Positions 4,975 to 27,266 of a stretch of DNA of 58,834 nucleotides are shown here, in pieces. The stretch is from IMG/VR virus record IMGVR_UViG_3300025645_000083, positions 1 through 58,834 of that record; one strand, 5' to 3'. Source of the DNA: a virus. Lineage: Duplodnaviria > Caudoviricetes. Every line of letters starts with the position of its first letter. Positions within the stretch are counted from its first letter, which is position 1. Made by a program: the position numbers and the translations under genes. The notes under the pieces are model-generated. The model was not told the origin of the DNA. It did not search any database and saw only the letters and a list, made by a program, of their open reading frames with translations.

Positions 4975-5871
4975 ATGAAATTAACGCAAAATCAATTTAC
5001 CGGAAAAGATGAGGAGAAAGACGGTAGGTCAATACCTGGTTCAATATATGTTGCGGTAGATACTAAGAAAATATATATTTACGACGTAAATGGCGTTCCT
5101 AAATTAATAAATTCTAACGCTCTTTCTGGAGCAAATCTTGTTGTTGACTTTTATTCAGACTTACCATCAGGAGTTGATGAAGAATCAATTGCTTTTGTTT
5201 TATATAGCCAGGGTACTCAATGGCTTCCTGGATCATTAGGAGGGACTTATTATCCATCAGGATGGTACATATATACCGCAGGAGCGTGGAAGCATAGTAG
5301 AGAGCTTGTTGACCAACAATTAGAAATATATGATGACCTAATAGCTGCAAATACAGCTTTAATTAATGGCCATATAAACAATATAGCAAATCCACATCAG
5401 GTAGACAAAAATGATGTTGGATTAGGAAATGTAGATAATACATCTGACCTAAACAAACCTGTCAGTACTGCTGTAACAAATGCATTATCAAGCAAGTCTG
5501 AGATTGGACATACTCATCTTAAGATTGATATAACTGATTTCAGTGATAGTGATTACGCTACTAATGCACAAGGCATATTGGCTAATACTGCATTACAACC
5601 AGGAGATGATATCTCTCAGCTGTTTAATGATGAAGTTTATTTACAACCTTCTGATAATATATCAGCATTAACAAATGATGCTGGTTATTTAATACCTAAT
5701 TCTGTAACAAGTTACAGAAGTGATGTAGAAGTTACCACTGTTTATAGTGGATACTTATTAAACTCAGTTATTACAATTAAAAGATGTACTGACGGAGTTG
5801 TTGCTTACGCAACAGGATTGACTGATCTAGAAACAGATTGGACAAATAGATTTAGTTTGACGTACATATAG
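4975..5871 (+). CDS. Fibre-like structural protein
   Basis: Phage fibre repeat NPHQVDKNDVGLGNVDNTSDLNKPVSTA, plus HTH and ISALTNDAGYL motifs. Confidence 0.65.
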   Translation: MKLTQNQFTGKDEEKDGRSIPGSIYVAVDTKKIYIYDVNGVPKLINSNALSGANLVVDFYSDLPSGVDEESIAFVLYSQGTQWLPGSLGGTYYPSGWYIYTAGAWKHSRELVDQQLEIYDDLIAANTALINGHINNIANPHQVDKNDVGLGNVDNTSDLNKPVSTAVTNALSSKSEIGHTHLKIDITDFSDSDYATNAQGILANTALQPGDDISQLFNDEVYLQPSDNISALTNDAGYLIPNSVTSYRSDVEVTTVYSGYLLNSVITIKRCTDGVVAYATGLTDLETDWTNRFSLTYI

Positions 5872-13208: not shown

Positions 13209-14708
13209 ATGCAATTAGGTAGATTTCAGGTAACTGACGCAAAGGCTTTTGCAGGAATGATTAATCCAGAAAACACTTTAGGTGCTATTTGGAAAGCATC
13301 TCCTCAAAAGATTAACGACGCAATGATCAAACTTTTGGCAATTCACAGAGGTAAGTCTTTGGAGAATATGCTGAACATGTTTGAGACAAAGTATGTAGAA
13401 AACGATAATGAATTCTATTGGGAACTTATAGGTAGTTCTCGTAGAAATATCCCATTATTCGAGGCACGCTATAAAGGTGCAACTGTAACAAGTGGTGATT
13501 CAAACATTGGTGAAGGTGGAACAACTTTTGAGTTGGCATTCCCTGAGCAATGGTTCTTCAAAGGAGAAATCATCGTTGGTGAGAAAAATGAGGTATATCC
13601 AATCCGTGTGATTGATGATGGTCAAGCAGAAGGTAGTCTTTATGTCTACACATGTGAGACTGCAGGATCAAGCAGAGATGGTATTCCAGGTGAAGAATTA
13701 GTATCAGGTAAAAGATTCAACGAAGAGTTCGCTCCAGTTGGAAAAGGACTTTCTAGAGAAGTTGGTGGTGTTCGTAGAGTAACTCCAGTTTCAATGAGAG
13801 GTGAGCTTACTACTATTCGTATCGACCACAAATTACCAGGTGATGCAACAGGTAAAAAAGTAGCTATGGGTATTCCTGTACTTACTAAGTCTGGAGAAAA
13901 GAAAGTTTTCCCAACATTAGCTCTTTACGAAGACTGGTTGGTTGAGCAAGAATTCTCAATGTACAAAAACAAATACTTGCTTTATGGTAAGTCTAACAGA
14001 ACTGCTGATGGTGAATACCACAACAAAGATGTATCTGGAAGATCTATCAAAATTGGATCTGGTATCCGAGAACAAATGGAGCAATCAAATACTTACTACT
14101 ATAATGACTTCTCTATCGAGATGTTAGAAGAAATCCTTTTTGGATTGTCTGAAGGTAAATTAGGATTTGATCAACGTGTGTTTATCTTACGTACTGGTGA
14201 AAGAGGTGCTGCTGAATTCCACAAAGCTGTCTTACAGACAACTTCAGGATGGGCTGCTCATATGTCTACACCGGGAACTAATCCGTCAACTATCAAGAGT
14301 ACTAACTCTGAGTTACATAGTAACGCAATGAGTGCAGGATTCCAGTTCACAGAATACATGGCGCCAAATGGTGTAACTGTTAAGTTAGAAGTAGATGATT
14401 TCTACGATGACAAAGTACGTAACACTATACGTATCCCAGGAAGTAATGGTGTAGCTGAATCTTATAGATTCGATATATTTTACATCGGTACTCCAGAAGA
14501 GCCAAACATCCAATGTGTTAAGGTAAAAGGTAAAGAAGAAATCAGAGGCTACCAATGGGGCTTCAGAAATCCTTTCACTGGTGCTGTAAACAACGGTAAC
14601 ATGGGAACTTTAGAGGATGCAGGTACTATTACTAAATTCTGTCAGTTAGGTGTTGTGGTTTATGACCCAACTCGTACTGCTCAGCTTATACCATACGTAT
14701 TAGCATAA
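13209..14708 (+). CDS. Major capsid protein, crAss-like
   Basis: Motifs recalled from crAss001-type MCP: RGKSL, IGSSRRNIPLxEAR, PVSMR, TGERGA, AGFQFxEYxAPNG, RGYQWGxRNPFTG, DPTRT. Confidence 0.95.
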   Translation: MQLGRFQVTDAKAFAGMINPENTLGAIWKASPQKINDAMIKLLAIHRGKSLENMLNMFETKYVENDNEFYWELIGSSRRNIPLFEARYKGATVTSGDSNIGEGGTTFELAFPEQWFFKGEIIVGEKNEVYPIRVIDDGQAEGSLYVYTCETAGSSRDGIPGEELVSGKRFNEEFAPVGKGLSREVGGVRRVTPVSMRGELTTIRIDHKLPGDATGKKVAMGIPVLTKSGEKKVFPTLALYEDWLVEQEFSMYKNKYLLYGKSNRTADGEYHNKDVSGRSIKIGSGIREQMEQSNTYYYNDFSIEMLEEILFGLSEGKLGFDQRVFILRTGERGAAEFHKAVLQTTSGWAAHMSTPGTNPSTIKSTNSELHSNAMSAGFQFTEYMAPNGVTVKLEVDDFYDDKVRNTIRIPGSNGVAESYRFDIFYIGTPEEPNIQCVKVKGKEEIRGYQWGFRNPFTGAVNNGNMGTLEDAGTITKFCQLGVVVYDPTRTAQLIPYVLA

Positions 14709-15752: not shown

Positions 15753-16493
15753 ATGACAACACCAGAGTTTATCTCAGAATTTGATTTAGGATATAACAAC
15801 ATACTAGGGGAAGGTGCACCAGGTCTTGACAATTATGAAAGATCGGTGTACTTAACCACATCTCAAGAAGAGTTAGTTAAGGGGTTATATAGCGGTAATA
15901 ATAATTCTAGGCAAAGTTTCGAAGATACAGAAAGAAACAGACGAGCTCTAAATGAACTTGTAATAGATAGCAAATCAGTTGATCTTGCTACTACATCAAA
16001 AGGATTAGTTGCAGACTCAAAGTTCTTTATAGTACCAAGTGATATTATGTTTATCATTGCAGAGACTGCTACAATTTCAAGTACAGATTCGTGCTTGAAT
16101 GGAAAAATTATAACAGTTAAGCCTATTACTCATGATGAGTTCATGGTAAGTTATAAAAATCCATTTAGAAAGCCTAATGCTAATAAAGTGTTTAGACTTG
16201 ATATTTCAAAGGTAGGAAGCTCAAAAGTAGTAGAATTAGTATCATCTGAATTATTAAGTCAATATAATTTAAGATATGTTAAGTACCCTAATCCAATCAT
16301 AGTCAGTGATTTAACTACTGATACACAAGTTGGAGGATTAGGTTTAACAATAAATGGTCTCACAGCAGTTGCAGGTTCGGAATTAAATTCGTATCTTCAC
16401 AGAGAGATAGTTAACAGAGCGGTAGAATTAGCTGTAAGAGATTATAGAGAAAACACGCTTAAAGCTAGAATAGAAACAAATAATAGAGTATAA
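15753..16493 (+). CDS. Tail ring protein (crAss gene 74-like)
   Basis: EFDLGYNNI..APGLDNYExSVYLT, YVKYPNPII and HREIVNRAVELA motifs. Confidence 0.8.
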   Translation: MTTPEFISEFDLGYNNILGEGAPGLDNYERSVYLTTSQEELVKGLYSGNNNSRQSFEDTERNRRALNELVIDSKSVDLATTSKGLVADSKFFIVPSDIMFIIAETATISSTDSCLNGKIITVKPITHDEFMVSYKNPFRKPNANKVFRLDISKVGSSKVVELVSSELLSQYNLRYVKYPNPIIVSDLTTDTQVGGLGLTINGLTAVAGSELNSYLHREIVNRAVELAVRDYRENTLKARIETNNRV

Positions 16494-16513: not shown

Positions 16514-17482
16514 ATGGGATTAGCTGGTCAAAACCAAGTTAGACAATTTTATCCAGGATTAGACTTTCCTGGACACGCAACAATTACAGCCTTAAAGGGT
16601 GGTACAGTAGGAGATTTAGCCTGCTTATCAGCTGACGGAACAGTAGCTGCTGCTGGAGAACCTGTTAAAATATTTAATCTTAATGCGGCTGGTAACCTAG
16701 TTGCTTCTGACAGTATTAAAGCAAGTAATTTAGTATATGCAAAATCTGTTGCTTATACGGCTCCAATTTTAGGATCTGTAACATTTAGTGCATTAGCTGC
16801 ACCAACGGTAGGTGAATTAGTAACGGTAGAAATAGTAATCAAAGGATTTGGTTCTTATTCTCCGGAAGATGAGTATGTAAAGAAAGCTTTTTACAAAGTA
16901 GTTACAGGAGATGATCAAGAAGCTGTCGTAGACGGACTTATTACTTCATTGAATCGTAATTTCTCTCGTGAAGTTGGAGCAACTGCAACATCAAACCCTT
17001 CTTTCGCATTCACTAAAACTGGATCAACAACTACTGCTGCTTTAGTTATCACTGAAAAAGATCAAATCTTAAACTACGTAGTAGGTAAGAAAGAAAGAGT
17101 AAATATTGATTTTTCAGCAGATATGAAGTCAACAGTATTACCAACCAAAACAGTTGTATCTTCAACTCAAGGAATTGGTTCTGGTAAAACAGTAGCTTCT
17201 ATGGAGTGGTACTTGAAAGGTGAAAGAAATGATTTCTACCGCGAGGCAGGATATCCACATAACTTAGAGAACTCTTACGAGATTAATCCTGCGGGAACTT
17301 ACAATCTTATCGAGTTAGCTTACTATGATGAAGGAAGAGACGAAGCGAAGAAAAGTAATAAACAAATTACTATTGCTATGCCTTTTACAAATTTAGCTGG
17401 AAATGCAGCAATCAATTTGCTTATTGCAGAATTGAATACAGCATTAGGAGCTGGTACTTTAGATGCTCTAGCAGTAATCTAA
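16514..17482 (+). CDS. Auxiliary capsid protein (crAss gene 73-like)
   Basis: NQVRQFY and GKxVAxMEWYxKGERxDxYRxAGYP motifs; followed by a terminator. Confidence 0.8.
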   Translation: MGLAGQNQVRQFYPGLDFPGHATITALKGGTVGDLACLSADGTVAAAGEPVKIFNLNAAGNLVASDSIKASNLVYAKSVAYTAPILGSVTFSALAAPTVGELVTVEIVIKGFGSYSPEDEYVKKAFYKVVTGDDQEAVVDGLITSLNRNFSREVGATATSNPSFAFTKTGSTTTAALVITEKDQILNYVVGKKERVNIDFSADMKSTVLPTKTVVSSTQGIGSGKTVASMEWYLKGERNDFYREAGYPHNLENSYEINPAGTYNLIELAYYDEGRDEAKKSNKQITIAMPFTNLAGNAAINLLIAELNTALGAGTLDALAVI

Positions 17483-17558: not shown

Positions 17559-18131
17559 ATGGCAATAACAGTTAAAACATTTATAGTATCTAATGACAAA
17601 TTAACAATTGATGTTGATTTAGAAGTTGGTGCTGGTCAACTATTCACAGGGGTCACTCTATGGACAGAGGCAACATATAAGAGTCCAACTACTGGCGTGG
17701 ACTTAAGCTCTCTATTAGCGGGAGCAACAAATACAGAGACATTTACTATTACAGCTGCTGACGTAGGTGTTAGTACTTTTGAGGGTATTTATATTGCAGA
17801 AATCACAAGTGATGATCCATTAGCTGTTATAGTAGCTACTGCTCCATTGGCTAAATACTATGCCGTTATGGCAACATTACTAGCTAACGTAGACTTATCA
17901 TGCTTAAGTTGTAATACAAACTTTCAGAACGCATTGCTATTAGACCTATATGTTGAAGCAATGAGACAGGCTTTAATACTTGGAAGATTCCAAGACGCAA
18001 TAACATACTTACAAAGAATAAATCTATATACATCAACATCATGTGATTCTTGTGACAATATTGACCCAGTGGTATCATCTGCCGGCAGTATAGTTTCAGT
18101 TGGAGTGATTGATTGTATTTTAACATCATAA
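17559..18131 (+). CDS. Putative tail hub/collar protein
   Basis: Ig-like N-terminus plus helical C-terminus with CxxC pairs; occupies the position of crAss tail-hub genes. Confidence 0.55.
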   Translation: MAITVKTFIVSNDKLTIDVDLEVGAGQLFTGVTLWTEATYKSPTTGVDLSSLLAGATNTETFTITAADVGVSTFEGIYIAEITSDDPLAVIVATAPLAKYYAVMATLLANVDLSCLSCNTNFQNALLLDLYVEAMRQALILGRFQDAITYLQRINLYTSTSCDSCDNIDPVVSSAGSIVSVGVIDCILTS

Positions 18132-18133
18132 AC

Positions 18134-19096
18134 ATGACGCCAAACAATGCAAACGTATTCTTGTCATCTGTTGCTAGAACTGATAAAAGGTTTAAGTATT
18201 ACGGAACAGGAAGCATAGAAAATATCAGCCTATTAAAAATGATTTATAAGTATGCTTGTTATGCTGGGGATTATGATACATTACAGAAGTTAGATAGACT
18301 TGTTAGCTTATTGCAACAAATGGATCCAGATATCTGTGTCAATGTTCATAATGCTGTTGGATCAGGATTCTTCCCAGAGGATAATCCAGATGTATCTATA
18401 CCAGATACTAGTAACAATACTGCTCCTACAATAACAGTAGGATCAGTTACTGTTGGTGCCGATGATAACACTTATAGTGTATTTGTTATAGGTGATTTTA
18501 CTAATTCATTTTCTGATGCTGATGGAGATGGCATTGGAGATGTAGTTATTAAAACACTACCAGCTAATGGTACGTTAACTTACAACTCAATAGATGTTAC
18601 TACTAATCAAGTTATACCAAAAGAATCAATAGGAAGTTTAGTTTATACAAGAAATTCAACTCTTGGTTATAGCACTAACTTTAACTATGCCGTGTATGAT
18701 GACAACCAAAATCCTTTACAATCTAATACGGTACAAATGGCAATTGAGGTTATTGTTGCAAGTAATCAGCCTGCTACAATAGGTGATAACACAATTTACT
18801 CTGACAATAGAGAGGTAACTATACTTACCTTAGCTATGTTTACTTCCGGACTAACGGCTCCATATAATGATCCAGAAGCGGATCTTATTGATGCTATTAG
18901 AATAGATGATATATCATCTACAAATGTAGGTGTATTTAAACTAAATGGAATAGCTATATCAGAGTTAGATATTATAACTAGAGAACAATTGAATGCTAGC
19001 TTATTCACGCACGAAGGACCAAATCAAGATACTATTAGTTCTGATGTGTTTGGATTTTCAGCACGAGATGAAGGCTCTTTAATCTGGGTACAATAA
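18134..19096 (+). CDS. Helical anchor domain plus two cadherin/Ig-like domains (last one truncated)
   Basis: NxAP/NQPA...DxDGD/DPEAD...LPANGTL...FxYxVxD repeats; ATG at 18134 follows the upstream stop. Confidence 0.75.
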   Translation: MTPNNANVFLSSVARTDKRFKYYGTGSIENISLLKMIYKYACYAGDYDTLQKLDRLVSLLQQMDPDICVNVHNAVGSGFFPEDNPDVSIPDTSNNTAPTITVGSVTVGADDNTYSVFVIGDFTNSFSDADGDGIGDVVIKTLPANGTLTYNSIDVTTNQVIPKESIGSLVYTRNSTLGYSTNFNYAVYDDNQNPLQSNTVQMAIEVIVASNQPATIGDNTIYSDNREVTILTLAMFTSGLTAPYNDPEADLIDAIRIDDISSTNVGVFKLNGIAISELDIITREQLNASLFTHEGPNQDTISSDVFGFSARDEGSLIWVQ

Positions 19097-19137
19097 TGGC
19101 AATATTCACAATAACAAATACAGGCACTAAGCCTTAA
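19096..19137 (+). CDS. 13-aa micro-ORF MAIFTITNTGTKP, resembling the N-terminal strand of the next gene
   Basis: TAATG overlap with the upstream stop, fills the gap, ends 3 nt before the next ATG; similar to MAKFNVTNV. Confidence 0.55.
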   Translation: MAIFTITNTGTKP

Positions 19138-19140
19138 TAC

Positions 19141-19887
19141 ATGGCAAAATTTAATGTAACAAATGTTAGCTCTATCAACCTGCCTCCAACCGAGGTGGGT
19201 GATATTACAATTAATATAGTTTTTGCAGTGGGCACACATGTGTTTACTCCAGCTAATTTCACGACAGAGACAGTTCCTGTTTATTCTGACCCAGAGGGAG
19301 ATGATGTATTTACAGTTAAAATTACTGCTCTTCCTACCTTAGGGTCATTAGAACTAAGTGCTGTTGCTGTTAATGTTAATGATGAGATAACTTTAGCGGA
19401 TATAACAGCGGGTAATCTTACTTACGATATTGCTGTTGCTGAGACTGCTGGATATTCTGATTCAGATATGACATTCAATATAGCTGATGATGGATCTGAA
19501 ACTTATGGAGTCATAACTGATGGTATTGTAACTTTCGCCGTGACATCTGAAATTAATTTACCTCCTAGTGATGTTGGGGACAATATCATAAACTTAACAA
19601 ATGGTGAGTTTTACACGTTTACATCAGCTAACTTTACAACAGAAACTACACCAGCGTATGTTGATCCAGAAGGAGATGCACCTTATAAGGTAAAAATACT
19701 TACTCTTCCTGCAAATGGAACATTAAAATTTAATGGAACTAATGTTATTGTAAATCAAGAAGTAACTGTTGCAGAAATTGATGCTGGACTTCTTACGTAT
19801 GTTCCAGATGTTTCAATCAAAACTGTACAATCACTTACCTTTGACTTTGCAGTATCGGATGTTGGGTCGGAAGGTTTTACTAGTTAA
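19141..19887 (+). CDS. Tandem cadherin/Ig-like domain protein (fibre or decoration)
   Basis: Two repeats of INLPPxxVGD...ANFTTETxPxYxDPEGD...VKIxxLP...VNxExTxAxIxAGxLTY. Confidence 0.8.
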   Translation: MAKFNVTNVSSINLPPTEVGDITINIVFAVGTHVFTPANFTTETVPVYSDPEGDDVFTVKITALPTLGSLELSAVAVNVNDEITLADITAGNLTYDIAVAETAGYSDSDMTFNIADDGSETYGVITDGIVTFAVTSEINLPPSDVGDNIINLTNGEFYTFTSANFTTETTPAYVDPEGDAPYKVKILTLPANGTLKFNGTNVIVNQEVTVAEIDAGLLTYVPDVSIKTVQSLTFDFAVSDVGSEGFTS

Positions 19888-19972: not shown

Positions 19973-20977
19973 ATGAGTTCAAACATCAGTAAAATTAAAG
20001 AATTTTTAGGGAGAAGACAAGGTTATTTAAAATGTGGTAATCAAAGGATTGCAGACGCTTTAGATGCTGAATACGGAGGCTTCAACTTATTTAAGCTTAA
20101 TGATATAAAGAGCGTAAAAAAACAGCTTAAAAGACGCGGAGTAAAGGCCATGGTTAAAGTAGCTAAAAGCACATCCTCAGACAGTGATATGAAAAGACAA
20201 CTGCAAGAGATGGCGAGTAAATTAGGAATGAAAGTAGTGGACAGTGAACCACAACAAATTAAACCTGGAAATGCATACTCAAGTAGAGACATTTCAAGAC
20301 TAAAACCTTATAAGAAAGGTAATATAGATAATATTCTAATTATAGGTGACTTACATGAGCCATTTTGTTTAGATGAATATTTGTTCTTTTGTAGAGAGCA
20401 ACAAGAAAAATACGATTGCGGAACAGTAATCTTTATAGGAGATGTGATTGATAATCACTATTCCAGTTATCATGAGCAAGATCCAGATGGCTATGCGGCT
20501 GGTGAGGAGCTTGATAGAGCAATTGATAGAATATCTGATTGGCATGCTATCTTTCCAAAAGCTACTGTTATAATAGGCAACCATGATAGAATGGCTTATA
20601 GAAAAGCTACAACTGCAGGTCTATCTAGAAAATGGGTAAGAGCATATAGTGATGTTCTTAATACGCCAGGTTGGGATTTTGTAGAGAACATTGAATTGTT
20701 TAATATAAACTTTAATCACGGTGAAGGCGGAACTGCAAGAACAAGAATAAAAAATGAATTGCAGTCACAAGTACAAGGACACTTGCACTCTCAATTTTAT
20801 GTTGAGTTTATAGCAGGCATGAACTTCTTGATATTTGGAATGCAAGTAGGATGTGGAGTAGACAGAGAAGCCTATGCAATGGCTTACGGAAGGAATTACA
20901 AAAAGCCCATTATTGGATGTGGAGTAGTTCTTGATAAAGGTACAATGCCAATTCCATTACCTATGAAAATGAAGTAG
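19973..20977 (+). CDS. Calcineurin-like metallophosphoesterase with basic N-terminal extension
   Basis: GDLH, GDVID, GNHD, HG and GHLH motifs. Confidence 0.9.
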   Translation: MSSNISKIKEFLGRRQGYLKCGNQRIADALDAEYGGFNLFKLNDIKSVKKQLKRRGVKAMVKVAKSTSSDSDMKRQLQEMASKLGMKVVDSEPQQIKPGNAYSSRDISRLKPYKKGNIDNILIIGDLHEPFCLDEYLFFCREQQEKYDCGTVIFIGDVIDNHYSSYHEQDPDGYAAGEELDRAIDRISDWHAIFPKATVIIGNHDRMAYRKATTAGLSRKWVRAYSDVLNTPGWDFVENIELFNINFNHGEGGTARTRIKNELQSQVQGHLHSQFYVEFIAGMNFLIFGMQVGCGVDREAYAMAYGRNYKKPIIGCGVVLDKGTMPIPLPMKMK

Positions 20978-20982
20978 AAACA

Positions 20983-21297
20983 ATGAATGAACATATCATA
21001 ATTGGCTCAATAACACTACCATATAGCCTCTCAAACACTGAGAGGCTTTTGTGGTTAGAAGACTGGATGTACGAATGCGCAGAAGGAATATTGGTAAATA
21101 GAATTATTGAAGTCATATTTACTAGAAAAGAAGCCATAGAAGACTCAATTGAATTTTTGGTAAAAAACAATACACACTGGATCCTTATGAAGGATAATGA
21201 ATTCTTAGCACCAAATGGTATAATAGTTAGATTTCATTATGACGAAGAAGGAGACAAATTATTAAGTCAAATAAGAAACACATACAAGAATGACTAA
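20983..21297 (+). CDS. Hypothetical protein
   Basis: Tightly packed ORF between its neighbours. Confidence 0.6.
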   Translation: MNEHIIIGSITLPYSLSNTERLLWLEDWMYECAEGILVNRIIEVIFTRKEAIEDSIEFLVKNNTHWILMKDNEFLAPNGIIVRFHYDEEGDKLLSQIRNTYKND

Positions 21298-21970
21298 GAA
21301 AGAATTAATATACACAGTCTTTGAGAAACTAAAAGTTAACTCTGATGATATGGATATCACAGAAGAGTTTGTTAGCTTCTTGATTGATAGCAAGCGCGCA
21401 ATGCTACTCAAGCAAAGATTTGATGCTAAGCCCTGGGCTATGCCGATAGAGACTAAACAAGAGCTTTGCTTAAGCCTAGAGGTTGTTTCTAAGGTAGCAG
21501 ACATGCCATGCTTTGGAAGAATAGTAAGAACAACTGTATCTTTACCTCCAAGTATTAAGATTAAAGGAAAAGAAGGCCCACTAACTGTTAGAAAATATGA
21601 TAGCTCAGCAATACATGTTAATATCATTCCATTAGAGAGAATACCTTTTATTGGAAACAATCAATTCACTGCCTCTATGATATATGGTACAATTGACTAT
21701 GATAATAACTTCTATTTAGTATCAGGGTCAGATAAGCTAAATCTTATGACTGAAATTAAGATAGCTGATATCTTTGAGAAGCCTGGTAATGCCGCTCTAT
21801 TAGAATGTGGTGCAGCAGATGAGGATTGTGAAGTATGGGAAAGAGAGTATCCAGTTGAACTATCCATGGTAGATGATCTGGTTAAAATAGTTGTACAAGA
21901 TTTGTCAAGAACATTTAATATTCCTGATGATAGTACTAATGATGCAGATGGCGAAAGAAAAGGACAATAG
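21290..21970 (+). CDS. Tail ring protein, crAss-like
   Basis: SDDxDIT...FLIDSKRAMLLKQ, QELCLxLE, EYP and PDDSTND motifs. Confidence 0.75.
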   Translation: MTKKELIYTVFEKLKVNSDDMDITEEFVSFLIDSKRAMLLKQRFDAKPWAMPIETKQELCLSLEVVSKVADMPCFGRIVRTTVSLPPSIKIKGKEGPLTVRKYDSSAIHVNIIPLERIPFIGNNQFTASMIYGTIDYDNNFYLVSGSDKLNLMTEIKIADIFEKPGNAALLECGAADEDCEVWEREYPVELSMVDDLVKIVVQDLSRTFNIPDDSTNDADGERKGQ

Positions 21971-22463: not shown

Positions 22464-23183
22464 ATGGCAAACACCGGAAGATTAGTAAGTATTAAAATGA
22501 TAGCTGATAGGCTAATGAGAAATCCTGTCTTAAAAGACTTAAGCTGGGAATTCATTGTTGACAATGCTATTGAAGTAATGCGCATACTAGAAACTCCTGC
22601 TCTATTTATCTCTAAGCAAGAAGCTGTTGAGATATCAAATTTCAAAGGAACTCTTCCTATTGATATAATGAAGGTAGAAGCAGTGTATAGACAAGATACT
22701 GATACTAGTGATCTTATCCCATTAAGGACTGGAACTGACACACTACACAACCACTATGATTCATATAATGATGCAACATCAGGAACTAATGGTGGTCAAA
22801 CATACACAATGAACAATAGTAAGATATTCGCTAACTTTGAGACTGGTACAGCTGTAATAGTTTATAAGGCCATAGCAATGGATGAGGAATGCTACCCTTT
22901 GGTTCTAGATAATGCAGTGTTACTTAGGTGTATTGAAAGTTATATAAAATATAGATGGTTTGACATCCTTAATGACATGGAACAAATCTCTGATAGAAAA
23001 CTAAACAAAGCTGAAGTAGACTATTTAGCTAATGTTGCGCAAGCTGATACTAATTTGAAACTACCTTCTGATGATGAGATGGAAACAATAGTTAATCAGA
23101 TCACTCAGCTAATACCATCAAGAACTCAATTTCAAGATAGATTTGCATTTTTAGGTGCACAAGAACACTTACGTATACACTAA
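22464..23183 (+). CDS. Tail ring/tubular protein (P22 gp4-like)
   Basis: FKGTLPxD, YKAIAMDEECYP and CIESYIK motifs; precedes the muzzle gene. Confidence 0.8.
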   Translation: MANTGRLVSIKMIADRLMRNPVLKDLSWEFIVDNAIEVMRILETPALFISKQEAVEISNFKGTLPIDIMKVEAVYRQDTDTSDLIPLRTGTDTLHNHYDSYNDATSGTNGGQTYTMNNSKIFANFETGTAVIVYKAIAMDEECYPLVLDNAVLLRCIESYIKYRWFDILNDMEQISDRKLNKAEVDYLANVAQADTNLKLPSDDEMETIVNQITQLIPSRTQFQDRFAFLGAQEHLRIH

Positions 23184-23186
23184 GAC

Positions 23187-26100
23187 ATGATTAAACAACA
23201 ACTACTTGGCTACAAAGGAATGTCAAAGGATCTTGCTAAAAGCAAGCAATCTGACAAATACTTTGATGCTAAAAACATAAGAATACTAGCTACTGATCAA
23301 CAAAGTTCTTTCTCTGTAACGAATGAGCATGGGAATTCTCAGGTCTTTGCTATTCCTACTCCAGTGTTCAATATTACGGATACTAGTATTGATTATACTG
23401 TTGGAACAACTGCTAAGAGTTTAGCTTACAAAACTAACACCTCTGTTATACCACGTTGTGATTTAGAGGCTAATTTCTATGGCGCCGCAGGACCGGTAGA
23501 AACTTCTGGCACACAAGTGATCATAGGAGTAAAAGAATTAAGAGATTCAGCTATCATTGTAACAACTGATAGCTCTGGCTTTGATTGCTTCTGGGAGTTA
23601 ACTAATGTAAACTCTGGATTGTTTGACTTAGAGTTGCTTTACATGAATGACCTAGGTCTTAATAAGACAAACCTAGTTCAGGTAGAGTATAACTACGAGA
23701 ATTCAATCATACAAAAAATATACTTTGTAGATGGTAAGAATCAATTAAGAACAATGAATATACGTCAAAGTATAGCTGTTGGTGACTCTAAAAATTTAAT
23801 AGATGTGCCGTCTACTGCAATTGATACAGTATCTACATTTGACTTATCTCAAGCCGTTGTTGATTCTGTAGTATCTGGTGGTGGTCACACTGCTGGAATG
23901 GTTCAATACGCGTATGGATTATATATTTTAAATGGATCACAGACTACTATATCTCCATTGTCTGAATTAGTGTCTCTTGACAAGGGTATTGGACTTGGGG
24001 GTGGTGATGTTAACGAGAATGTTGGTAGAGCAGTGATTGTAAATGTGCCGGACATTGACCAGACATTCACACATATTAGAATATACGCTATTAAATACAC
24101 TTCTTATAATGAAGAGCCTGAGGCTTCGCTTATTGCGGACAAGGAAATAGATAATTTCTCAACCTTCACATATTATGATGATGGTTCACGGGTATCAAGT
24201 ATTTCGTTAGCTGCATTCGTGTTTTTAGGATCAGATCCTATTATACCAAAACACATAGCTACTAAAGATAATAGATTATACCCAATAAACATTAAAGAAA
24301 ATACATTTGATTTTGAACTTGACACAAGATGTTATGGTCATAATTCATTTGGTCACATGTCTGTATGGGAAAATATATACTTAAATACATCTAATAATCT
24401 TAGTGGAAATATACTTCCAATAAATGGACCTTCTATTGATTATACATTAGTTCGAGAAAGACATGATTCTATTAATAGGGACTATGATGATTACAAGTAT
24501 CAATCTGATGGAACTACATTAGGCGCAGAAGGAAAGTACTTTAAAGTTGAAGTTGATCAATCTACTTTAACTGATTCAGAGGCGCTTGATAAGCAATTCT
24601 TAAAAGATAGAGAGATATATAGAATAGGAATTCAATTATACAATAGACGTGGCCAAAAGAGTGAGCCTAGTTGGATGTGTGATCTTAAAATACCTGATGG
24701 AAATCTATCAGGAAATTACAATAAGCTTAGAGTAACTTTAAAAGCTGACTTCTATGTTTGGCTAAATACTTCATCTAATTTTGATACTCCGGACGATATA
24801 CCTACTGGATATAAAGTATTAAGGGCTGATAGAACTATTACTGATAAAACAATACTTACTCAAGGTATTATAAACCCAATGGTTGCTAATATTCAGCACA
24901 CTACTAAGCATACAAATCGTTCTGAAAGAAAAACTGATGTAAATACTTCAGAGACAGATAAAATGCCTAGTGTTATTAGAACTTTTCAAACTAATGTTCC
25001 TTTTGTTAAATGTAAAGATTATCATGAGACAGCTTGGAAGGATAGTAATGATTCTACTTTTAGTGACTTAGGAAGAGGTAGAGATAGAGAAGGATTTAAA
25101 GGCGCAGCCTCAAGTGATTGGCGTGCGCAAACATTCCAGCACAATAGACTGCTTCAGATGTTTTCTCCTGAAATATTATTTACTGACATTAGCATTGACT
25201 CTTCTTATGAATTAGAGATTGTAGGACTAATGGAAGAAGATTATTCAGCTAATTGGTCAACAGAAACTAATCCAACTAGTGGTGTACATGGTCAAGAAGC
25301 TAAATTTATAAATGGATTCACATCCGATTCACCTGGCGTTACAATTAACACAATAAAAGGCAATGCTGGATACCTTAGTGATAAGGCATTTTTTGGTCCA
25401 ACCAATGACGATCATAATGTAGCAACACATCAGATGTACAGGCAGTTTAAAGGAGATTTTAGTGTAGCAACTGGTACTCGTAGATATGAACTATATGGAA
25501 CTCCAGAAGTAACAGAGAAAGGGTCAGACTTTACTACATATAATGGTGATACAAACATAAGGTATTCTAATCATCTTAAGAGTCATTTAATTGATGATTT
25601 TAGAGATAGTGATAACGCTAAAGATAATGGTGGTGATAATGCAATTCAAATATTAGGTATTACATCAGAAGGAGCTAAATGCGTTACATTCATGGAAGGT
25701 CCTGATGATAATACATATGATTTAGAAAATAGAACTCCAATTGAAGACATGCATTCTGCATCAGGTATAGCAGAAACAAATGGTATACTTGTGGCTGAAT
25801 TCGCTAAAGATAACAATACAATATATATAGGATCTATATATGGAGGTATGACATTTGAAGCTAAATCTATTAGTTCGTATATTGGTATTGGCACTTACAC
25901 GCCAATAGCCACTGATTCTATATTAATTCAATCTCCTGGAGATACCTTTGTTAACACGTTTACATTTACAAAAATAGCTAAGCAAGATACTGAAGAGACA
26001 TCACAAGCTTACAATAGAGTATGTGAAATAGTGTCAGTTAAATTAGAATCTAGTATAGATTTAAGAAATAGAAATGATTTATCTCTTTCAGAATGGGATA

Positions 26101-27266
26101 ACAGATACCAGCCTAGATACGAAGAGTATCAAAGCTATAACAGAGTTTATTCTCAGCAACCTTCATTAGTTAAGAGTTCAGAGACTGGATTTAAATCTAA
26201 AAAGATACAGGAGTTTGACACAAGACTAATGGCGTCAAAAGAAAAAATACCTGGAGAGAGTGTAGATTCTTGGACAGATTTCTTACAAAATGAAACTATG
26301 GACCTAGATGGTCAATATGGCCCAATAAACGCCGTAGTAAATGCAAATGATGAGATATATTGTTTACAGGATTCAGGTGTTGCGCATATATCAGTAAACC
26401 CTAGAGTTCAAACCTCAGGAGCTGATGGAGTTGCGATAGAGCTTGGTGTTGGTGGTATACTTCATGATTATCAATATGTAACAACTAAATCCGGATGTTT
26501 AAATAAATGGGGCGTAGTTGCTACACAAACAGGATTCTATTACATAGATATCCTTAATAAAGGGATCATACAGTTTAATGGACAAATTAAAGGCTTATCT
26601 GATCAAGAAGGGTTTCATGCTGAGTTCAACAACTCAATGATATACAATGACCTTGTGTTAGACAATGCTGTAAACTCTTTTGGAGTTGCAACAGGATACA
26701 ATAGTGTAAATAATGATGTTTACTTTTCTATGAAAATGTCAACAGGAAGCTTTACAATAGCATACAACGAAGCTACTGGCAGTTTTGTAAGCTATTATGA
26801 TTATATTCCAGCCTGGTATATAAATAAGGGGGCTCGAATGATTACATCAAATCCTGCTAATACACAAATATGGGAGCACTTCCAAGGCTCTAAGAATCAC
26901 TTTTATGGTGTACATTATCCTTCTACAATAGAATTTAATGTTTCTCCACAAGGAGAAAGAGACGTTGTGTTTAATAATGCTTCTTATAAGATGGAAATGA
27001 TTAATAGTGCTGGATCTGACCAACCTAATACTGGCCTTACTAAAGTAAGAGTGTACAATGACTATCAGGATAGTGGTGAAATAGCACTTGCTCTTAGAGA
27101 CAACATGTTTAAGAAATTCAGATCTTGGAAGGTTAACTTGCCAAGAAATGCTGGATCAAGAGATAGAATAAGAAACCCTTGGAGTTTTATTGAATTTACA
27201 TTTGATAACACCTCAGGCAACAGTATGGTCTTGCATGACATGACTATTCATTACACAGAGTATTAA
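23187..27266 (+). CDS. Tail stabilisation/muzzle protein (P22 gp10-like)
   Basis: KGMSKDL...FDAKNIRI, KIYFVDGKNQLR, EIYRIGI, GDTF, DSWTDF, YGPIN, KKFRSW and RIRNPW motifs. Confidence 0.9.
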   Translation: MIKQQLLGYKGMSKDLAKSKQSDKYFDAKNIRILATDQQSSFSVTNEHGNSQVFAIPTPVFNITDTSIDYTVGTTAKSLAYKTNTSVIPRCDLEANFYGAAGPVETSGTQVIIGVKELRDSAIIVTTDSSGFDCFWELTNVNSGLFDLELLYMNDLGLNKTNLVQVEYNYENSIIQKIYFVDGKNQLRTMNIRQSIAVGDSKNLIDVPSTAIDTVSTFDLSQAVVDSVVSGGGHTAGMVQYAYGLYILNGSQTTISPLSELVSLDKGIGLGGGDVNENVGRAVIVNVPDIDQTFTHIRIYAIKYTSYNEEPEASLIADKEIDNFSTFTYYDDGSRVSSISLAAFVFLGSDPIIPKHIATKDNRLYPINIKENTFDFELDTRCYGHNSFGHMSVWENIYLNTSNNLSGNILPINGPSIDYTLVRERHDSINRDYDDYKYQSDGTTLGAEGKYFKVEVDQSTLTDSEALDKQFLKDREIYRIGIQLYNRRGQKSEPSWMCDLKIPDGNLSGNYNKLRVTLKADFYVWLNTSSNFDTPDDIPTGYKVLRADRTITDKTILTQGIINPMVANIQHTTKHTNRSERKTDVNTSETDKMPSVIRTFQTNVPFVKCKDYHETAWKDSNDSTFSDLGRGRDREGFKGAASSDWRAQTFQHNRLLQMFSPEILFTDISIDSSYELEIVGLMEEDYSANWSTETNPTSGVHGQEAKFINGFTSDSPGVTINTIKGNAGYLSDKAFFGPTNDDHNVATHQMYRQFKGDFSVATGTRRYELYGTPEVTEKGSDFTTYNGDTNIRYSNHLKSHLIDDFRDSDNAKDNGGDNAIQILGITSEGAKCVTFMEGPDDNTYDLENRTPIEDMHSASGIAETNGILVAEFAKDNNTIYIGSIYGGMTFEAKSISSYIGIGTYTPIATDSILIQSPGDTFVNTFTFTKIAKQDTEETSQAYNRVCEIVSVKLESSIDLRNRNDLSLSEWDNRYQPRYEEYQSYNRVYSQQPSLVKSSETGFKSKKIQEFDTRLMASKEKIPGESVDSWTDFLQNETMDLDGQYGPINAVVNANDEIYCLQDSGVAHISVNPRVQTSGADGVAIELGVGGILHDYQYVTTKSGCLNKWGVVATQTGFYYIDILNKGIIQFNGQIKGLSDQEGFHAEFNNSMIYNDLVLDNAVNSFGVATGYNSVNNDVYFSMKMSTGSFTIAYNEATGSFVSYYDYIPAWYINKGARMITSNPANTQIWEHFQGSKNHFYGVHYPSTIEFNVSPQGERDVVFNNASYKMEMINSAGSDQPNTGLTKVRVYNDYQDSGEIALALRDNMFKKFRSWKVNLPRNAGSRDRIRNPWSFIEFTFDNTSGNSMVLHDMTIHYTEY

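Follow-up and report, generated by a model that had tools for sequence, protein, structure and literature searches.

In the only crassvirus atlas the tail fibres are the least resolved part (PMC10172136), and the way in which crassviruses attach and exchange their receptor-binding modules awaits an explanation. A possible one is offered by a short locus, positions 18,134 to 19,887, of the IMG/VR virus record IMGVR_UViG_3300025645_000083, whose 58,834 bases, here called the window, amount to about 60% of the genome by completeness estimate. The locus encodes, on the + strand, two proteins that we name by their start positions, 18134 and 19141, with a 13-codon micro open reading frame (micro-ORF, 19096..19137) between them. 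A first-pass annotation, made from the letters alone, had read the three as a pilus-like fibre held together by donor-strand complementation, in which a strand of one subunit completes the sheet of another. The window is a contig of a crAss-like phage (Crassvirales), seemingly a marine one: Pfam finds Crass_capsid, CrAss_Ring_3_4, crAss_AuxCP, CrAss_Ring_2, CrAss_Ring_1 and crAss_MUZ among its proteins, and the gene order matches that of phicrAss001 from gp32 to gp44. Here we report that a donor-strand joint between a hub-like anchor, 18134, and the next protein, 19141, is supported by three independent kinds of computational evidence. For the whole of the reading that we favour, a split-domain plug-and-socket arm of the tail collar, we estimate a probability of about 0.6.

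Both proteins are built largely from cadherin-like domains. The AlphaFold2 model of 18134, made with a family alignment as input (predicted local distance difference test, pLDDT, 82.6), begins with a three-helix hub domain (residues 1-66, 18134..18331; helices 3-23, 29-43 and 47-63), followed by a flexible linker (residues 70-91, 18341..18406) that has pLDDT <50 and is variable and gapped in alignment A1. A complete cadherin-like domain comes next (residues ~95-208, 18416..18757); DSSP assignment on the model takes it from a strand at E103-107 to the F strand at E179-189 and a cis G strand at E200-206 (TVQMAIEVIV), and residues 94-210 match cadherin and protocadherin structures with Z scores of 6-8. 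The last domain (residues 209-320 and stop, 18758..19096), which we call the socket, is encoded without most of its G strand: the F strand at E306-312 is followed just by a two-residue bridge at 318-319, and the protein ends at residue 320. The socket is the most conserved part of the 18134 family, with W318, two residues from the end, invariant in 41 of 41 A1 sequences.

Protein 19141, modelled in the same way (pLDDT 94.8), has the complementary arrangement at its start and the same arrangement at its end. It opens with an orphan G-type strand, the plug (residues 1-12, 19141..19176), followed by a complete cadherin-like domain (residues 13-137, 19177..19551) with its F strand at E105-116 and a cis G strand, GIVTFAVTSEI, at E128-134. 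The second cadherin-like domain (residues 138-248 and stop, 19552..19887) is again an open socket without a G strand, in which the F strand at E236-240 is followed by pairing only at 246-247, and the protein ends at 248. In both proteins the chain thus stops 8-10 residues past the last F strand. Residues 1-16 (MAKFNVTNVSSINLPP) are unpaired coil in the monomer model (pLDDT ~65), and they align without gaps to the protein's own inter-domain G strand and linker, as well as to the cis G strand of a fused homologue described below.

These models bear out most of what had been proposed for the individual chains. Complete repeats do consist of an F strand, a G strand and an NxP(P) motif, as in FNYAVYDD..TVQMAIEVIVASNQPA of 18134 and FNIADD..GIVTFAVTSEINLPP of 19141, with the strands confirmed by DSSP, and 19141 does begin with an orphan strand of this type. 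In the models neither terminal domain forms a complete sandwich, both being open without a G strand, and the N-terminal strand of 19141, modelled as coil, does not fold back within its own chain. The proposal that the last domains stop before the G strand holds in that no G strand follows F, and was slightly overstated in that a short cis tail (LIWVQ in 18134, GFTS in 19141) remains.

The fold class of these domains is cadherin-like, at the border of the Cadherin_3 family PF16184. On 19141, Pfam Cadherin_3 matches residues 184-240 (E 3.4e-5) with 24.2 bits, under the 25.5-bit cut-off, and precomputed lists assign PF16184, PF17803 or PF17963 to its cluster and to several relatives; 18134 has no Pfam match at all. 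The profile of PHROG 22884, a virion structural protein, matches both 18134 (E 1.4e-44) and 19141 (E 5.7e-52). A Foldseek comparison of both models with the PDB gave generic tandem beta-sandwich matches of low template-modelling (TM) score; those to FimH and CsuE (E 2.5e-5 to 1e-3, TM 0.2-0.38) were not read as homology.

A complex of the two proteins was predicted from residues 205-320 of 18134 (alignment A1) and residues 1-135 of 19141 (alignment A2), and it scored 0.69, against 0.00 for the best of three controls. In a calibration that is rough here, as custom alignments were used, scores this high were obtained for 58 of 80 solved complexes and for 2 of 110 mismatched pairs. The runs share at least 92% of their contacts, and the partner pLDDT is at least 76. 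From 19141, residues 1-11 alone make contact, and they are placed between the A and F strands of the last 18134 domain, antiparallel to F (pairs 306-4, 304-6 and 302-8) and parallel to A (219-4, 220-5 and 222-7), with residues 216-225, 298-310 and 320 forming the 18134 side of the interface. The geometry of the plug is that of a native G strand. Furthermore, the plug starts right next to residue 320, the C-terminus of 18134, so that the chains resemble one nicked polypeptide, and the junction, ..IWVQ followed by MAKFNVT.., resembles the cis sequence ..NTVQMAIEVIV.. of the preceding 18134 domain. In the model the plug therefore fills the groove of the socket, as had been suggested, which supports binding of the two proteins without demonstrating it.

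The same strand is found in cis in naturally fused homologues. Among the listed homologues of 19141, eight have at least 359 residues, and seven of them (all but P0227) were examined. Four open with a hub-type helical domain (P0133, P0136, P0225 and P0238). Residues 8 to ~205 of 18134 align to residues 8 to ~193 of P0225, and residues 1-248 of 19141 align to its residues 186-427, with M1 falling on M186 (43% identity, E 8e-52); P0133, P0136 and P0238 are built like P0225. In these fused proteins the plug (e.g. NMATFSIIINQSVNQCP) serves as a cis G strand for the cadherin-like domain that belongs to the hub protein, and in P0225 the 19141-type ending (SDVG..FT.; here SDVGASCFTA) continues in cis into another Met-initiated G strand, GGQMSMTVNSYINQP. 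The other three (P0155, P0202 and P0220) are three-domain plug proteins, and all seven end shortly past an F strand. A longer protein that continues the conserved socket domain in cis was looked for among proteins of 561-2000 residues and not found, a weak indication that this socket is always terminal. As a separate observation, the longest contig given for cluster P0002 (anchor, 91% identical) and that given for P0122 (19141 homologue, 67%) each have 56,695 bases; should the two be a single contig, its anchor was kept while the arm was swapped or diverged fast, which points to mosaicism at the joint.

Loci were collected around anchor homologues (51 from IMG/VR, 13 from metagenomes and 1 from a metagenome-assembled genome, MAG) and around 19141 homologues (79); they are designated here by L numbers where one has to be singled out. 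A scripted scan gave 36 distinct anchor junctions, and in 33 of them an ORF opening with the plug directly follows the anchor, within 50 nt. The script itself flagged 35, from which L005 and L006 were discounted, the flagged start there being an internal Met of a 61-69-residue membrane ORF that precedes the real, 98-residue plug gene; the L092 junction opens MIISITT, outside the plug pattern. For five anchors that the script pattern missed (L015, L028, L038, L048 and L060), the plug gene is next in four and lies further on in L038. More generally, the plug motif, with hydrophobic residues at positions 4, 6 and 8, opens 93 of 696 distinct + strand ORFs of at least 90 residues in the related loci, compared with 3 of 74 on the - strand.

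The hydrophobic 61-69-residue ORF (MFSRLITSRKLWGALIGSACIMILVV..) is a feature of its own. It occurs in L008 (5957-6166) and L059 (3957-4142), and at the same position in L005, L006 and L009, beginning in a TAATG overlap with the anchor stop and preceding a 98-residue plug gene; neither the window nor L066 has it.

What follows the plug varies widely, from 8 to more than 1,600 residues. The cargoes comprise two-domain cadherin-like proteins, Cys-stapled proteins of 95-132 residues, a DUF5122 beta-propeller protein (E 5e-21), proteins of 388 to more than 1,600 residues, and small proteins of 44-59 residues encoded upstream of a long fibre gene that opens ..INxGTxxNxxDGD, as g082 of Cellulophaga phage phi14:2 and seven others. 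These small proteins (L028 5977-6144, L029 5660-5803, L032 5623-5763, L041 5944-6102, L043 6018-6158, L152 4897-5052, L036 6011-6157 and g082 itself, L001 5338-5472) lie between the anchor and the fibre gene, mostly carry ..(T/S)SN(M/I)N.. in mid-sequence and in several cases end ..EQ(E)W(L/S)GN; they resemble adaptors that would supply a plugless fibre with a plug. In L152, the MAG contig, a 208-residue ORF (5054-5680) opening MKKEGYIYKIISPSGKIYIGQT stands between the small adaptor gene and the fibre gene, and we take it from its motif to be GIY-YIG homing endonuclease-like.

Relatives nearly always have a gene for a plug-bearing tip protein beside that of the two-domain protein. Where the 19141 homologue opens MLYTITN, the tip gene lies downstream (113-132 residues, opening MGxIxI), and in L008, L060, L061 and L066 it lies upstream (95-103 residues). 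This arrangement suggests a defined chain of hub, arm and tip rather than a polymer. Both small-tip families (examples are L012 5913-6311, L034 8597-8938, L016 6851-7654 and L008 6141-6437) have one Cys about 25-30 residues in and another at most 3 residues from the C-terminus, with endings such as ..H.G..C, ..RCEA and ..TCK, and the paired Cys suggest a disulfide staple; the two families, when compared by BLASTP, gave no mutual similarity. A second plug-bearing two-domain protein is encoded in another part of the genome in some relatives (L109 3001-4438, L099 3016-4475, L107 3001-4325 and L087 3001-4125) and none is found in the window. These second copies open MG(T/L)ITL.. or MA(I/T)FT(L/V)T.., are followed by a plug protein of 127-239 residues and have no anchor gene beside them; the copy follows an 804-residue ORF in L109 and a homologue of the window's 9508-11376 in L099.

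Where on the virion would such an arm be attached? The hub domain of 18134 was compared with 48,161 solved chains (VIA-align), and the top match was 7qoj_I (Z 8.4, rmsd 2.1 A, 71 aligned residues, model residues 2-72), with the reservation that below Z ~13 helical bundles may match simply because the arrangement is a common one. The matched chain, of 107 residues, belongs to 7QOJ, the phicrAss001 tail barrel entry, and from its length is taken to be tail hub protein B (THB; gp39, 114 codons), a protein that according to PMC10172136 runs to residue 107. In the same paper gp38 and gp39 are tail hub proteins A (THA) and B, of the collar where fibres dock. The order in the window, auxiliary capsid protein (AuxCP, 16514), 17559, 18134 and ring protein 2 (R2, 21290), corresponds to gp36, gp38, gp39 and gp40, such that 18134 takes the THB position, with 19141, a phosphoesterase gene and a 104-residue ORF between it and R2. 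Because of this top structural rank together with the synteny, computation supports the assignment of 18134 as a hub-like anchor and THB counterpart, in keeping with the anchor role first proposed for it.

Its upstream neighbour 17559 (190 residues, 17559..18131, + strand) is a probable THA counterpart by its position and by a motif seen by eye. Its gene is flanked by those of AuxCP and 18134, just as gp38, with the homing endonuclease gp37 left aside, is flanked by gp36 and gp39, and, compared by eye, 17559 and gp38 have in common an N-terminal I.S.D..L.IDV motif and a Cys-rich helical C-terminus.

In the mechanism that we propose, this region of the window would be part of a module of the tail collar that docks fibres. 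The helical N-terminal domain of 18134 would sit in the collar, and its arm of two cadherin-like domains would replace the short C-terminal segment of phicrAss001 THB; both the collar location and the copy number of the arm are what we infer. The last 18134 domain would be a split domain, encoded without most of its G strand and so leaving an open socket, and the 19141 plug, M-A-x-F-x-[IV]-T, would supply the missing strand, antiparallel to F, parallel to A and right after the 18134 C-terminus. Protein 19141 would in turn end in a second open socket, and in relatives this socket and that of the anchor would be served by varied plug-bearing cargoes. Plug and socket might thus act as a universal connector that makes receptor-binding modules swappable.

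Several points weigh against this reading. The evidence for binding consists entirely of predictions, and a structure predictor may complete an immunoglobulin (Ig)-like fold with any strand-prone peptide or recall solved donor-strand complexes of pili; the controls, moreover, were unrelated proteins and not scrambled plugs. P0225 is without the conserved socket domain, its 19141-like part being fused to the first cadherin-like domain, so that the plug is in cis there but not with this exact socket. The invariant tail of 18134, ..IWVQ, might partly cover the groove itself. As regards the hub, hhalign of A1 against phicrAss001 gp39 gave a probability of 0.05%, hence no sequence support, BLASTP of 17559 against gp38 gave no match, and in phi14:2 the anchor gene adjoins tail-spike genes and not AuxCP. 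Finally, the phicrAss001 fibre gp22 docks via a different N-terminus, MFFTQEDY... In an alternative reading no strand is donated: the terminal domains would be stable six-strand sandwiches closed by their own short tails, and the N-terminal motif would dock elsewhere, for example in the THA/THB hub, or simply be a conserved start region. Docking of gp22 in the hub by its N-terminal 26 residues, as given in PMC10172136, is in line with this, as are the short bridge that the 18134 tail with W318 makes in the monomer model and a complex score that may show a general tendency to complete Ig folds. However, gp22 has an N-terminus that bears no relation to the plug, cis G strands, those of natural fusions included, match the plug at each aligned position, and the model uses residues 1-11 only, with native G-strand geometry and controls at 0.00. 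The adjacency of socket and plug genes in 33 of 36 junctions also speaks for donation, and we regard the absence of any donated strand as unlikely.

What, then, is the 13-codon micro-ORF (MAIFTITNTGTKP; + strand) between the two genes? As had been reported, it encodes a strand only and is coupled to its neighbours, starting in a TAATG overlap with the 18134 stop and leaving 3 nt between its own end and the 19141 ATG. The TAATG aligns, together with the end of 18134 and the first 10 micro-ORF codons, to the corresponding junctions of L066, with a 101-residue gene, and L008, with a 98-residue gene, about 270 nt being missing in the window. By this alignment a plug-plus-tip gene of about 100 residues suffered a deletion, and the micro-ORF is its remnant. 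A chance origin is ruled out by the orthology of the junction to the L066 gene and by the plug-motif counts given above. We propose that the gene between 18134 and 19141 lost about 270 nt, leaving its start region and plug. As the start region is unchanged and the end lies 3 nt before the 19141 start, the micro-ORF is probably still translated and would keep 19141 translationally coupled.

An ORF that encodes a plug and nothing more comes after the anchor in 7 of the 36 junctions, and these ORFs fall into four sequence groups: the window (13 codons); L007 and L067 (17 each) with L064 (13); L025 and L027 (10 each); and L024 (8). Six of the seven finish on the following start codon or no more than 3 nt away from it; the exception is the L024 stub, which is not contiguous with the gene behind it and has a decayed appearance. 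One of the results that the first-pass annotation had held to count against its reading, a deletion scar, is thus seen, and conservation of the micro-ORF is partial: plug-only ORFs recur in four lineages, yet 29 of 36 junctions have none and the window's copy derives from a deletion. Between the stubs of L016 and L064, 3 of 27 nt differ over the first 9 codons, in two codons and both times synonymously (one CGT to AGA), while the flanking genes are 69-75% identical in DNA and, past these codons, the stubs are set apart by in-frame indels. The pattern is a hint of constraint, in a very small sample that equally fits selection on the start region or on coupling.

Two features of the letters around the micro-ORF stand apart from this. 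It lies in the same frame as 19141, separated only by TAA and TAC, such that read-through would give a tandem double plug. No comparable pattern is seen in the other lineages, the L016 stub being in a different frame from its neighbour, and stop-codon read-through was rejected as a general idea; we know of no reassignment of TAA in these phages. Over 15 nt the internal GGTACAAATGGCAAT and the junction GGTACAATAATGGCAAT are identical, which was not counted as evidence, as the same residues and codon bias would yield it, and the comparison illustrates how a strand can be split by a 2-nt change.

Could the peptide cap a polymer? In the reading first offered, 18134 is the nucleus from which 19141 subunits, joined head to tail, polymerise into a pilus-like fibre, and the 13-residue peptide acts as its cap, with the ratio of extender to cap setting the length. 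It is true that 19141 combines a plug with an open socket at its end, that it is the only window ORF of at least 80 residues to open with a plug, and that the micro-ORF retains the start region of a gene functional in L066. As stated, this elaboration is not supported: relatives flank the 19141 homologue with a plug-bearing tip gene, which suggests the defined chain, the micro-ORF is absent from most junctions and arose by deletion, and, with the window at ~60% of the genome, tip genes may lie outside it. We consider the polymer and its cap very unlikely. A more modest alternative has the arm as a defined chain and the plug-only peptide as a working stand-alone donor strand, which would complete the open last domain of 19141 after loss of the tip, or blank sockets and so tune the number of extended arms, a state reached or kept in four lineages. 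The window would then have two plugs for two sockets, and open Ig-like domains of chaperone-usher pilins are unstable without a donor strand. The recurrence of plug-only ORFs of 8-17 codons in four sequence groups, the abutment of six of the seven on the next start and the purely synonymous differences between L016 and L064 fit such a role. Against it, very little sequence is compared (27 nt; two or three independent pairs), the synonymous differences may predate the truncation or reflect selection on start region and coupling, the L024 stub looks decayed, and a free plug would compete with 19141 for the anchor socket. We consider a working peptide possible but doubtful.

The plug-and-socket arm has its closest parallel in chaperone-usher pili (FimH/FimG), where likewise an Ig-like domain is encoded without its G strand, as in the models of 18134 and 19141, and the N-terminal extension of the next subunit donates a strand antiparallel to F, as predicted for residues 1-11 of 19141. 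The differences are considerable, however. The domains of 18134 and 19141 are cadherin-like and without sequence relation to pilins; Pfam has no fimbrial family for either, and no PapD-like chaperone or usher family among the 16 window proteins scanned, the other window ORFs not having been scanned. Phage virions assemble in the cytoplasm, and assembly of the arm must accordingly be cytoplasmic, on the virion. Furthermore, the phage subunits would be unlike modules (hub, arm, tip and adaptors), and the phage socket keeps a short cis tail that occupies the beginning of the G position. Bacteroidota type V pili and archaeal threads are strand-exchange assemblies too, and in these, as in TasA fibres and sheath handshakes, a subunit strand completes a sheet in the next subunit. 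They are homopolymers or sheath meshes, whereas the phage joint would link unlike modules of a podovirus tail appendage. Donor-strand exchange in a contractile sheath is described in PMC13266070.

Among phages, the fibre hub of phicrAss001 (THA gp38, THB gp39, fibre gp22) has the same order of AuxCP, THA, THB, R2, one further gene, ring protein 1 (R1) and muzzle protein (MUZ). The N-terminal domain of 18134 superposes on the 107-residue 7QOJ chain taken as THB, and fibres there attach by a short N-terminal peptide, according to Bayfield et al. 2023 (PMC10172136). In contrast, THB has 114 codons and, in that paper, a C-terminal segment that interlocks neighbouring hubs, where 18134 has a linker and two cadherin-like domains; gp22 is trimeric, with an N-terminus that lacks the plug motif, and no sequence similarity to 18134 or 17559 is seen.

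Cellulophaga phage phi14:2 is the only named DNA relative, with 71% identity over 348 nt inside the last domain of 18134 (g083), and its homologues in BFVD match with E 1.4e-29 and 2.8e-13. Its g083 is an anchor ending ..ARDEGSKIWVS, g080 a two-domain plug protein, g082 a small plug-bearing protein of 44-48 residues and g079 a tip protein opening MGTFSITV; g083, g081 and g080 are annotated as virion proteins found by tandem mass spectrometry. It differs in carrying g081, a fibre gene of 557 residues, in having a complete small adaptor in place of the window's 13-codon stub, and in the anchor adjoining tail-spike genes. The phi14:2 annotation names no assembly mechanism, and none was found in the literature searched.

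By Pfam, the window encodes the major capsid protein (13209-14708), ring protein 3/4 (15753-16493), AuxCP (16514-17482; crAss_AuxCP, E 2.5e-38), R2 (21290-21970), R1 (22464-23183) and MUZ (23187-27266). Between 19141 and R2 lie a calcineurin-like phosphoesterase gene (19973-20977; Pfam Metallophos E 3.1e-9, phrog_221 E 4.5e-54) and a conserved 104-residue ORF with no family assigned (20983-21297), and both are found at the same position of the tail module in many relatives. Sequence searches of the PDB with alignment A1, 17559, 20983 and residues 1-95 of 18134 gave no relevant match, and phmmer with those same 95 residues gave no crAss entry.

The mechanism itself is known from pili. In a literature search of limited coverage, no donor-strand joint was described for any phage appendage, and its use as an exchangeable connector of the phage tail collar was not found in print. 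If the joint is real, it would explain how one conserved collar protein carries very different cargoes across phages and why genes shuffle freely just downstream of the anchor, and host range could change by swapping a gene that needs only a ten-residue N-terminal plug. Donor-strand complementation would then be at work not only in secreted pili but also, chaperone-free, in a virion assembled in the cytoplasm, and one may ask how the open domains are kept soluble until they assemble. For marine Crassvirales, the plug motif offers a practical annotation rule for appendage genes.

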